Shown here in pieces: positions 1 through 3,000 of a stretch of DNA of 7,135 bases. Made by a program: the position numbers. The DNA comes from Escherichia coli. Lineage in GTDB: Bacteria; Pseudomonadota; Gammaproteobacteria; Enterobacterales; Enterobacteriaceae. The stretch's first letter is position 1. Every line of letters begins with the position of its first letter. The stretch lies in NCBI RefSeq assembly GCF_003334255.1, contig NZ_QOWU01000096.1. The stretch is one strand, 5' to 3'.

Positions 1-3000
1 CTGGCGGTGCCTGTTGATAAGGCTGTTGAGCTTGTCAGGGATCGCAGTAAATTCGCGGAAATTTCGAAAAATTTCGGTTATTTCACGCCGAAGCAGGAGG
101 GGCTTTCTCTGAAAGATATTCAGAAAGAAGCCAGCCAGGTAGCAGCGGAAGCGATCAAGAACGGCGGTAATGCTCAGGCTGCGAGGGATGAATTTTTAGC
201 TGCGCATGGTTTACCGGAATATCAGCAGAAAATTCAGCAACAGAAATTTGAACAGCTTTTACAGAAGGGGCAGACCTGGGCGGAGGGCGATCCGGTCAAA
301 CTGGAGTTTGTCAAAGCGACTGCCGCCAATATGCCAGCCTTGCTGGAACCGGGGCGTGAAAAGGAACTGGAAATTTGGTACCAGAATCACCTCCGGGATA
401 AAAAAGCCGAACAGGAAAAAGCGAAGAATTATAGCGCTGCTGCATCAGCCGAAGAGATCAGAGGCTGGATGAAGTAAAGTTACGCGGCAGTAACGCGCTC
501 CCCGTTAATATCGTTCACTTACGCCCGACCATCGTGTCGGGCTTTTTTTTACTGGAGTCTGTATGGCTTTTTCAGATGAGCAGCGCCCTGAAGCGCAATT
601 GGGTAACCAGAACCGCAGCAGCCTGAACATTAAGCAGCCGGGAGAAAATTACTGGCAGGATTTTTTCAGCAACCCGCAGAATGCCATTGATCACAGCACA
701 TCGTTCAGCCTCGGTGATGTATTGCCAACAATGGGTAAAGGTTTCGCCCAGTCCGTCCGGGGAACAGGGGAGATGGTCCGTGGACTCGGTGATGGATTTG
801 TAAATAATCCTGTAAAAACGCTTGCCGGGTTGTCGTCTTTCATGACGGATGTTTACATGCCGCCTTCCTCCACGCAAAAGGAACTGGGCGCGCCACCTTC
901 TGTTGGAGATGCGATTAAAAACATTCCCGATGGAACAGGTAAAAACGCGGTCACTGATACTGTCGGTGAAGGTCTGAAAGCAACCGGTAAGGCAGTCAGT
1001 GATGGTGCCAAAGCCTCGGATGAATGGCTGACAGATCAGATGTCGCCGGGTGCTGTTCGTGCGCTGAACACGCCAATGAGTGAAGGCTATGATGATTCTG
1101 CGGTCTTGCTGACGAAGGGTGTAAACCTGATTGGTGCGCTTGTACCTGATCTGGTTGCTGGCGGTGTGGTTAGAAAGGTGGGACAGGTCGCACTGAAAAG
1201 AACGCTGACCGCCGGGCTGGAGAAAAAATACATCGCGGCAGGAGTGCAGCCGGAAAGAGCCACGGCACTGGCAGCAGAAGCTGTCGATAAAAAAATGACG
1301 GATTTCTTCCATGCGGGCCTGATCACCCATTCCACAGCCAGTGCACAGGGGCAGAGTGCAATGTCGGCAGCAGATGCTGTTCTTAATGCGGATTACGCTG
1401 AGCTGGCGCAGTCACCGAAATTTCAGCAGACGTTTTTGTCAATTGATGCAGATCCACAGCACGCACAGCTTACTGATCGCCAGAAAATGGACCTGGCAAA
1501 AGAGCGTGTTGCCGATGAGGTGCGCGCGCAGCTGGCAACCGATCCTGAATTGCTGGCTGTGAATGCCATGGCGGCAAAACTGGGTGACGCACAACTGTTT
1601 AATCTGGTGACACGAGGCACAGCGAAGACCGTTAAAAGCGGCATTGTCAGAAATGCCACGGAACAGGGCGTAATTAACGGGGCACAGAACGCCTATTCGC
1701 GCTATCAGGAAAACACGGCATTGCGTGAGACCGCCGGAATGGATGTGTCACCGTGGGAGGGCGTGGCTGACGCAACGATCGAAGGTGCAGCCTTTGGTGC
1801 TGCGATGGGGGCTCCATTCGGTGCGGTTGCCGGATATCGTGGCAGACGTCAGGCCGCAGAAGAAGCAGCCATGCGTGATGCTGAAACCGTGCAGCAGGAC
1901 GACGCAGCCCCGCAACCCGAACCGGTTGATCCGGTGGCACAGCATCGTGAATCCATGCAGGGGATGAATCGCGAGCAGCTTCTGGAACAGTATGCTGATG
2001 CGGATATGGCACATGAGGGAGACACGTCTGCCGTTCATCGCCGGGAAGCCGCCAGCCAGCTGTTGAATGAACTGGATGAACAGGCGAAGCGACAGGCGGT
2101 AATGGATGAGCTGAAGGCGAAGCCGCGCCCTGAACTGCTTGAGGAATACCGAAAACTCAGCCTGAAGGAAGGGCGTACTGATACTGAAGAGCAGCAGTTA
2201 CAGGCTATCCGTGATGTGCTTCGCCCTCAGCAGGAGGCCAGACCGGAGGCACAGCCACAGCCGGAAAATGCGGATGATGGCGACGGGAGTATTTACCCGA
2301 CGGTGCGGTTCCGCGATCCGGATGAAGTTCGTATTGAAATTAACGGGAGTGGTGCGTCCAGACCAGCAGAACGCATTGAAAAGGTGCGTCCGGACAACCG
2401 TTATTTCACGGATGAAAAAAGTGCTCTGGGGAGCGACGTTTTCCGCAATGCCAGCGCCACCGGCCTGAAACCGTCCGTAGTGAAGAAAGGCGAGAATCAG
2501 TATGCCGTTGAAATGGATAATCCTGCGTTCTCTGAAGATGTGGCAACGGAGACCATTAACACCCTGGCTGACGGAGAGCGTATTGCTGATGCTGAACCGA
2601 TGGAGCAGCCCGCGTTCATGCGTGACCCGCGATTCCGTGGTTTCACGGGGGATGATACAGAAGTGCAGGCCCGCCTTGCCCGTGGCAACGCGCCGACGGC
2701 AGAGGAGCTTGTACGTTCACAGATGGCTGAAGGTGATGCCGGTCCGACAGCACAGGAGTTAACTGAGCGTCCACGCCTTCCCGCTCCCGGCGATATTCAT
2801 CCCGGACAGGGATATCCGTTACCAGGAGAAGTGGCGCGTACGCCGGATGAAAATCAGGCCGGACGTGGTGGTCGTTTTACCACAACCGGTGAGGTGAAGG
2901 GCCAGAGTTTCCAGAAAGGACGTGCGCAGGCACCGGAAAATGCCGCTGGTCGCCAGGGGGAAATACTGGAGGGCGAACCGGTTCGTCGTGGTCTGCCGTC

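Follow-up and report, generated by a model that had tools for sequence, protein, structure and literature searches.

What is encoded by a gene that ends just ahead of a giant, cysteine-free open reading frame (ORF) in Escherichia coli, and do the two genes work together? The question is raised by a stretch of 7,135 nucleotides from contig NZ_QOWU01000096.1 of assembly GCF_003334255.1 (the whole stretch analysed, hereafter the window), the first 477 positions of which hold the 3' part of the gene. The gene is the orthologue of Sp5 ORF79 (ECs1241) and phi24B gp48 in a short-tailed prophage like 933W, Sp5 and phi24B (Sepvirinae-type structural module). Its 420-residue product is probably a component of an ejectosome, packaged into the capsid and ejected together with the giant protein; a narrower proposal, that it is an analogue of the proteins which build a periplasmic tunnel, is put forward more tentatively. 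That the orthologues are associated with virions, are essential and can be deleted without loss of normal DNA packaging was established by others, and the present analysis adds the orthology itself, conserved synteny, family-wide avoidance of cysteine, a fusion protein and a predicted fold without known homologue. The gene and its essentiality have been published and its presence in virions is recorded in the supplement of a preprint; the ejectosome assignment, the fusion evidence and the cysteine signature were not stated in the literature searched.

Identification of the gene

The feature under study was delimited by translation and by identity to the PhiR12_3 protein XSB41892:

Window 1-477, plus strand: 3' part (codons 263-420 and the stop codon) of a 420-residue gene of the ORF79/gp48 family

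Frame 1 of this region is open for 158 codons up to a TAA stop at 475-477, and the deduced protein ends in AEQEKAKNYSAAASAEEIRGWMK. A sequence-only reading of the window had described the fragment as rich in Lys, Glu and Gln and free of Cys, which its composition bears out (A 14.6%, K 11.4%, E 11.4%, Q 8.9%, no Cys). All 158 residues are identical to the C-terminus of XSB41892, a 420-residue protein of Escherichia phage PhiR12_3, and the phi24B orthologue, of 77% identity, is represented by peptides in mass-spectrometric data; the fragment is therefore genuine coding sequence. It covers the last part of the conserved central alpha/beta domain and the entire variable C-terminal helical domain of the protein. 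At the DNA level the window is 97% identical to PhiR12_3 over its full length and 93% identical to ArgO145, and it matches 186 phage records, nearly all of them from Shiga toxin (Stx)-converting or related short-tailed phages.

The full gene, whose recovery had been proposed as a check on the fragment, was obtained via PhiR12_3 and encodes 420 residues; in related phage genomes the length is 420-421 residues. It comes fourth in a compact cluster of co-directional genes (218, 148, 83 and 420 residues), followed by a gene of 2,789-2,811 residues at the right end of the prophage. The last gene of this five-gene cassette encodes a giant polyvalent protein with LPD5, LPD1, MuF_C and LPD38 domains. 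Regarding the orthologues, phi24B gp48 (vb_24B_47, ADN68471) is 77% identical to the full-length protein over 417 residues, and the 933W protein aligns with it end to end. Between the 933W-type and window-type alleles the identity is 35-56% over residues ~320-420 (the last ~100), compared with 80-97% elsewhere, and the window-type protein ends in RGWMK instead of NYAQ.

PhiR12_3 has no annotated stx at the usual site downstream of Q (L014, record positions 21000-28000), where restriction-enzyme-like and transporter-like genes are found. As PhiR12_3 is the closest relative (97% identity), the phage of the window need not be toxin-converting.

Genetics and virion content of the orthologues

In-frame deletions across Sp5 were reported by Mondal et al. 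in 2016 (PMC5155283). The products of Sp5 ORF76-80 have 218, 148, 83, 421 and 2,793 residues (supplementary table of PMC5155283), which are the sizes and the order of the present cassette; ORF79 (ECs1241) therefore corresponds to the window gene and ORF80 to the giant gene. Deletion of either ORF79 or ORF80 abolished plaque formation and lysogenisation and could be complemented in trans, and the knockouts packaged DNA at wild-type level into normal-looking heads; the ORF76 knockout was strongly impaired (PMC5155283).

Phage phi24B was studied by cryo-electron microscopy (cryo-EM) and virion proteomics in a 2026 preprint (bioRxiv 10.64898/2026.04.10.717836), according to the supplement of which gp48 (47852-49114, 421 residues) lies directly upstream of gp47. 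The phi24B cassette has the order and sizes of that in the window-type phage. A total of 1,634 peptide-spectrum matches (PSMs) were assigned to gp48, including 179 from the whole-virion digest (portal 101, lateral fibre 167). The copy number was given as about 30 per virion (range 18-56), as estimated roughly from spectral counts, and the structure-based abundance as 'ND'. The proteins gp51, gp50 and gp47 were also found in virions, at approximately 22, 36-40 and 19 copies, with no structural assignment; in the main text gp47 is the sole proposed encapsidated ejection protein and gp48 is never mentioned. The 86-residue gp49 yielded 6 PSMs and was discarded as a contaminant owing to its 'bacteriocin' annotation (all from bioRxiv 10.64898/2026.04.10.717836).

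A functional pair with the giant protein, which had been suggested from shared orientation and composition, is supported by the same knockout phenotype for both genes (PMC5155283), by the presence of both proteins in purified virions and by conserved linkage.

The counterpart of phi24B gp49, the 83-residue gene (L002:10953-11204), encodes a small, Cys-free glycine-zipper protein. The gene is a conserved member of the cassette in distant phages and its product is for this reason probably a genuine virion or ejection component of low signal.

Conservation of the linkage

A scan of IMG/VR with an 11-sequence family alignment yielded 75 loci of 29-100% identity, 70 of which were informative, having at least 1.9 kb of downstream sequence. 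In 67 of these 70, down to an identity of 29%, a giant ORF follows on the same strand, counting giants that are intact, run off the contig, are split by a frameshift or are separated from the ORF79-like gene by one to three inserted genes. In the other three loci, which may be decayed prophage ends, the downstream ORFs measure only 573-795 residues. The sample is redundant and consists mostly of enterobacterial prophages, yet it includes several clearly separate lineages. Distant homologues (~20-36% identity) with enough flanking sequence have three small genes upstream and a giant gene downstream in five of five cases; the giants measure at least 1,744, 2,782 (LPD5/LPD1/MuF_C/LPD38), 4,891, at least 965 and 2,351 (LPD38) residues. 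Co-occurrence with homologues of the giant, by which the pairing was to be checked, is thus seen in the viral loci as well as in the metagenome and genome contexts.

At L008:11503-21506 the ORF79-like gene and the gene of the 4,891-residue giant share 4 nt at the stop of the former, and their translation may be coupled. In several other distant relatives (L010:5556-6407, L004:11464-11625, L069-L091) one to three small genes lie between the ORF79-like gene and the giant, examples being a reverse-strand Rap1a-domain gene and T5orf172 in L007. The gap between the two genes looks like a moron insertion site.

Avoidance of cysteine

All other annotated proteins of PhiR12_3 contain 197 Cys in 14,667 residues (1.34%). 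At this frequency the absence of Cys from the 158-residue fragment has P ~0.12 and is not significant alone, whereas it is meaningful for the full-length protein (P ~0.003), for the five PhiR12_3 cassette proteins (0 Cys in 3,658 residues, P ~3e-22) and for the family, in which 50 of 51 members lack Cys and the total is 3 Cys in 23,903 residues. The Cys-free composition shared with the giant, taken as a clue from the fragment, is accordingly at chance level in that fragment and a real signal family-wide. Five distant loci show Cys-free cassette genes between flanking genes of normal Cys content, with two exceptions, the giant of L008 (6 Cys in the 3,334 residues covered) and one 193-residue gene (1 Cys).

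The avoidance is common to the established ejection proteins of P22, T7 and N4. No Cys is present in P22 gp7, gp20 and gp16 (the P22 assembly protein gp14 has 4), in T7 gp15 and gp16 (T7 gp14 has 1), or in N4 gp50 (3,500 residues), gp51 and gp52. As a criterion for ejection proteins Cys avoidance is empirical and comes from this analysis, not from a published definition; the word cysteine does not occur in two papers on such proteins. It may be an adaptation to unfolded passage through a narrow channel into the oxidising periplasm, which would avoid trapping by disulfides.

Protein family and predicted structure

The full-length protein matches PHROG 601 (unknown function) with an E value of 1.3e-185, residues 1-419 aligning with profile positions 1-429 of 443. 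No meaningful match was obtained in Pfam, NCBIfam or PADLOC, in line with the earlier remark that no motif supports a specific role, and PHROG 601 was the only family matched, with no well-known unrelated structural or housekeeping family among the results. Against PDB sequences the profile had a single chance match (E 0.12), and an exhaustive search of 1.84 billion cluster representatives gave 73 related clusters only, mostly aligned over residues 2-280. The least conserved region of the family is the C-terminal 140 residues, which is the part contained in the window. The hallmarks of the family are an invariant N-terminal glycine-zipper motif (G3xxxG7xxxG11-F..D16) and a central block (..VTY.DGST..KPVT..); both lie upstream of the window and were read in the 97%-identical PhiR12_3 protein.

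An AlphaFold2 model calculated with 51 homologues had a mean predicted local distance difference test score (pLDDT) of 87.5. In this model residues 4-129 form a single unbroken helix, which at 1.5 Å per residue would measure ~19 nm; a mixed alpha/beta domain extends to approximately residue 290 (conserved core ~200-265) and is followed by a C-terminal helical domain at 299-419, with predicted helices at 267-287, 299-315, 320-330, 334-356, 360-372 and 382-419. The fold is predicted with confidence and is without known homologue; no solved counterpart of it was found.

A fusion with P22-type ejection proteins

One homologue, P0142, is a Cys-free protein of 1,386 residues in which the ORF79-type sequence is joined to sequences of P22-type ejection proteins. 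PHROG 601 is matched by residues 5-356 (E 3e-39), the C-terminal half of PHROG 2534 (P22 gp20 type) by residues 346-480 (E 2e-21) and PHROG 770 (P22 gp16 family) by residues 745-1383; the N-terminal half of P22 gp20 itself matches the first 247 positions of PHROG 2534. BLASTP of residues 911-1380 against P22 gp16 showed an identity of 35.6% (E 5e-77), and a longer part, residues 367-1383, corresponds to two neighbouring genes in the ejection cassette of Klebsiella phage phiKp_30, one of which is annotated as DNA ejection protein. A Pfam search of residues 300-1386 gave nothing; a precomputed P22_gp16 match was confirmed instead by BLASTP and the PHROGs. Judging from these alignments, the ORF79-type module in P0142 replaces the N-terminal half of gp20 and is placed covalently ahead of gp16. 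The stretch of ORF79 that is replaced in P0142, approximately the last 85 residues, is the most divergent stretch among the alleles of Stx phages.

The P0142 gene (L005:10001-14161, GCA_051468635.1, CP195798.1; L006:856-5016) is located in a P4/phage-inducible chromosomal island (PICI)-like element together with integrase, AlpA, Bro-N, primase and TumE genes. No capsid or tail genes were found within 10 kb, and the gene had no match in complete E. coli genomes. A satellite carrying its own ejection-protein fusion would be unusual.

Comparison with known ejection systems

The canonical order of an ejection operon is small, medium, largest (PMC8954989). The window-type cassette is co-directional and likewise ordered small, medium, largest, as is N4 with gp52-gp51-gp50. 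The N4-like T=9 capsid of the Stx-type short-tailed phages makes the comparison with N4 a natural one. N4 gp51 and gp72 of Pseudomonas phage DEV are periplasmic-tunnel ejection proteins adjoining the giant virion RNA polymerase (vRNAP); they are mid-sized, Cys-free and encoded directly upstream of a Cys-free encapsidated giant (3,500 residues), with a small ejection protein before them. Before ejection gp51 surrounds the portal, and its C-terminus has been proposed to hold the N-terminal domain of vRNAP.

P22 gp20 and Sf6 gp12 (PF16928) are of similar size (471 and 431 residues), Cys-free and encoded directly upstream of the largest ejection protein; they are present at about 30 copies per virion (PMC8402733). 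T7 gp15 is, like the 420-residue protein, helical, Cys-free and encoded by the middle gene of its ejection operon, but it has 747 residues. In T7 an ordered core stack sits on the portal; the phi24B paper contains no description of a stack of this kind.

Regarding sequence and fold, the 420-residue protein has no similarity to T7 gp15, to P22 gp20 or to the N4 gp51/DEV gp72 family. Comparison of the family profile with T7 gp15 and N4 gp51 by hhalign showed no homology. For P22 gp20 the hhalign probability was 0.5% and PF16928 was not matched, the sole and indirect link being the P0142 fusion; a homologue search seeded with P22 gp20 returned only sequences of more than 92% identity. The protein most likely occupies the mid-sized slot that is held by T7 gp15, P22 gp20 and N4 gp51 in their respective systems.

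Proposed function

In the co-ejection model the cassette proteins would enter the capsid during assembly, in tens of copies each. Once the receptor is bound and the tail needle is lost, the extended polypeptides would exit by way of the portal and tail channel, before or with the DNA, and would refold in the envelope to form a transient conduit (the ejectosome) that prolongs the 22-nm tail across the periplasm. The N-terminal GxxxGxxxGF..D motif and the predicted ~19-nm helix (residues 4-129) may drive oligomerisation or membrane contact, and the conserved central alpha/beta domain (~200-265) may serve as the core. The variable C-terminal helical domain would then be an interchangeable terminus for docking on the following component, for which the N-terminal region of the giant is a plausible candidate; this docking is proposed because of the analogy to the C-terminus of N4 gp51 and the N-terminal domain of vRNAP. 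Among the roles suggested from the sequence (a chaperone, a packaging adaptor or another delivered protein), the last fits best, and a pure chaperone acting outside the particle is contradicted by the virion proteomics.

Several points weigh against co-ejection. The exit of ORF79/gp48 from the particle and its entry into the envelope are inferred steps, and a cassette of five genes, compared with the canonical three, makes the assignment of a job to each gene ambiguous. The Cys-free composition is suggestive and not diagnostic, because the only two other Cys-free PhiR12_3 proteins of at least 200 residues, the needle and a fibre-like protein, are not ejected. C-terminal alleles of ORF79 associate with alleles of the first 100 residues of the giant (44 loci), an association that does not discriminate, because physical linkage of genes 85 nt apart explains it equally well. 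The copy numbers carry the roughness of spectral counting. P22 ejection-protein mutants still carry tails. Beside these, the particles of the ORF79 and ORF80 knockouts bound no antibody against the tail fibre (ORF67), and both genes were classed by Mondal et al. as tail-formation genes of unknown role (PMC5155283).

Alternative explanations

A capsid-internal organiser or packaging adaptor would, much as a remnant of a core or scaffold, recruit the giant protein and position it, perhaps with the DNA end, within the head, and would remain in the capsid after ejection. The strict co-occurrence with the giant gene, the presence of the protein in virions without ordered density, the predicted long helix and helical domains (as in many scaffolding-like proteins) and the position of N4 gp51 around the portal, where it holds the N-terminal domain of vRNAP, are consistent with such a role. 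However, the core organisers of N4, T7 and P22 are themselves ejected, which makes the organiser a stage of the co-ejection model rather than an alternative to it, and the family-wide avoidance of Cys and the covalent fusion to a sequence of the released gp16 argue for a common exit route. A protein that stays in the capsid is considered unlikely.

The tail-antibody result also suggests a tail-assembly or tail-structural role, in which ORF79 and ORF80 would serve to construct or attach the short tail with its fibres, without being ejected. In its favour, the knockout heads that failed to bind the anti-tail-fibre antibody were DNA-filled and normal-looking (PMC5155283), and one source labels a member of the cluster 'Phage tail tape measure'. 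On the other hand, the antibody result is a negative immuno-electron microscopy observation given as 'data not shown', and the reading is weakened because the phi24B cryo-EM model of portal, two adaptor rings, nozzle, six fibres and needle is complete without gp48 (listed as ND). A protein of 46 kDa, present in approximately 30 copies, would hardly escape notice on a tail of 22 nm. The fusion with gp20 and gp16 domains and the avoidance of Cys point to the ejected set, and a podovirus has no tape-measure slot. A tail-structural role for ORF79 appears quite improbable; the tail and ejection readings may, moreover, be compatible, as absent internal proteins could destabilise tail attachment.

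The tape-measure label was rejected in view of the short-tailed podovirus virion and of searches of Pfam and PHROG, in which no tape-measure family was matched.

A delivered cytoplasmic effector without a role in the channel, such as a transcription factor or an anti-defence protein, is very improbable. Such a role is hinted at by the GenBank note on phi24B vb_24B_47, which names 'putative transcription initiation factor' and 'seryl tRNA synthetase' similarity, by the label 'Transcription factor?' in the phi24B proteome sheet and by the giant partner, a polyvalent protein of a class that is proposed to carry anti-defence domains (PMC5512222). Against these, searches of Pfam, NCBIfam and PADLOC gave no domain for DNA binding, enzymatic activity or defence, and the old GenBank similarity is typical of a long coiled helix. 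The gene is essential even on K-12 MG1655 in the laboratory, and about 30 copies together with a conserved Gly-zipper N-terminus better suit a structural oligomer. The transcription-factor label was likewise rejected, as neither a DNA-binding nor a sigma-like domain was matched in Pfam or NCBIfam.

That the two genes are chance neighbours, matching in orientation and composition by coincidence, is hardly credible: the chance-level Cys content of the fragment alone (P ~0.12) and the terminator-like hairpin between the genes would agree with it, but the synteny extends down to 29% identity, the knockout phenotypes are identical, both proteins are in virions, Cys avoidance is family-wide, and the hairpin belongs to a late operon under Q antitermination and is missing from loci with overlapping genes (L008, L009).

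Spacer and giant gene

The remainder of the window is occupied by two features, which were derived from a terminator scan with RNA folding and from translation, respectively:

Window 478-562, plus strand: intergenic spacer of 85 nt with a terminator-like hairpin, T8 and a ribosome-binding site
Window 563-7135, plus strand: first 2,191 codons of the giant ORF, a Cys-free polyvalent protein orthologous to Sp5 ORF80 and phi24B gp47

The fragment had been placed immediately upstream of the giant ORF and co-directional with it. The shared strand stands, and the adjacency has to be qualified by the spacer, in which a hairpin at 523-542 (7 bp, 6 of them GC) followed by T8 at 543-550 has the typical shape of an intrinsic terminator. 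A GGAG at 554-557 precedes the ATG of the giant ORF at 563 by approximately 5-7 nt. No Rfam family was matched anywhere in the window. In 933W the spacer hairpin is retained, and an A-T to G-C change in the stem is compensatory; a second hairpin of this kind closely precedes the cassette at about L002:9780-9820. Both hairpins may shield the cassette in the lysogen from transcription started at moron promoters, with Q-modified polymerase reading through. In distant relatives (e.g., L008 and L009) the ORF79-like and giant genes abut or overlap, without a hairpin.

The giant ORF lies on the same strand and is open, without Cys, over the 2,191 codons up to the end of the window; the full-length protein in PhiR12_3 has 2,789 residues. 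Domains were located at residues 1046-1195 (LPD5), 1356-1435 (LPD1) and 1745-1835 (MuF_C), HExxH motifs at residues 1279 and 1546 (window 4397-4411 and 5198-5212) and a glycine zipper GxxxGxxxG at residue 408 (window 1784-1810). Hot spots of allelic variation are the first 200 residues and the region around 800-900, with an identity of 60-86% compared with 95-100% elsewhere. The start of the 933W-type giant (L012:3026-3064; many IMG/VR loci with a 30-nt 'gap') is seemingly annotated 13 codons too far upstream: MPGHCAGFFYGVC. The extra 13 codons read through the hairpin and provide the only two Cys of the protein; when started at the conserved MAYSEEQ, behind the GGAG, the 933W-type giant is Cys-free, as in its relatives.

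Implications for Stx phages

Shiga toxin genes are spread by short-tailed Stx phages, and the passage of phage DNA across the envelope has not been worked out. The genetics of 2016 gave ORF79 no role, and the phi24B structure of 2026 names the giant gp47 alone as ejection protein. As a tentative generalisation, the five-gene Cys-free cassette may represent a distinct type of podovirus ejectosome, in which a 420-residue protein of new fold, with its N-terminal glycine zipper and 19-nm helix, would form the part that crosses the periplasm and would deliver the polyvalent protein of ~2,800 residues to the cell; near-total avoidance of Cys may, in the same generalisation, be a general mark of tail-channel proteins that can be read from the sequence only. 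The mark holds for the N4, T7 and P22 sets checked, save for the one Cys in T7 gp14. Placement of ORF79/gp48, and by extension of gp49-gp51, in the ejectosome would explain two 'tail' genes that have no place in the tail structure and would provide a concrete, testable parts list for DNA entry. The signature of Cys avoidance, if general, would be a cheap flag for ejected proteins in uncharacterised phages.

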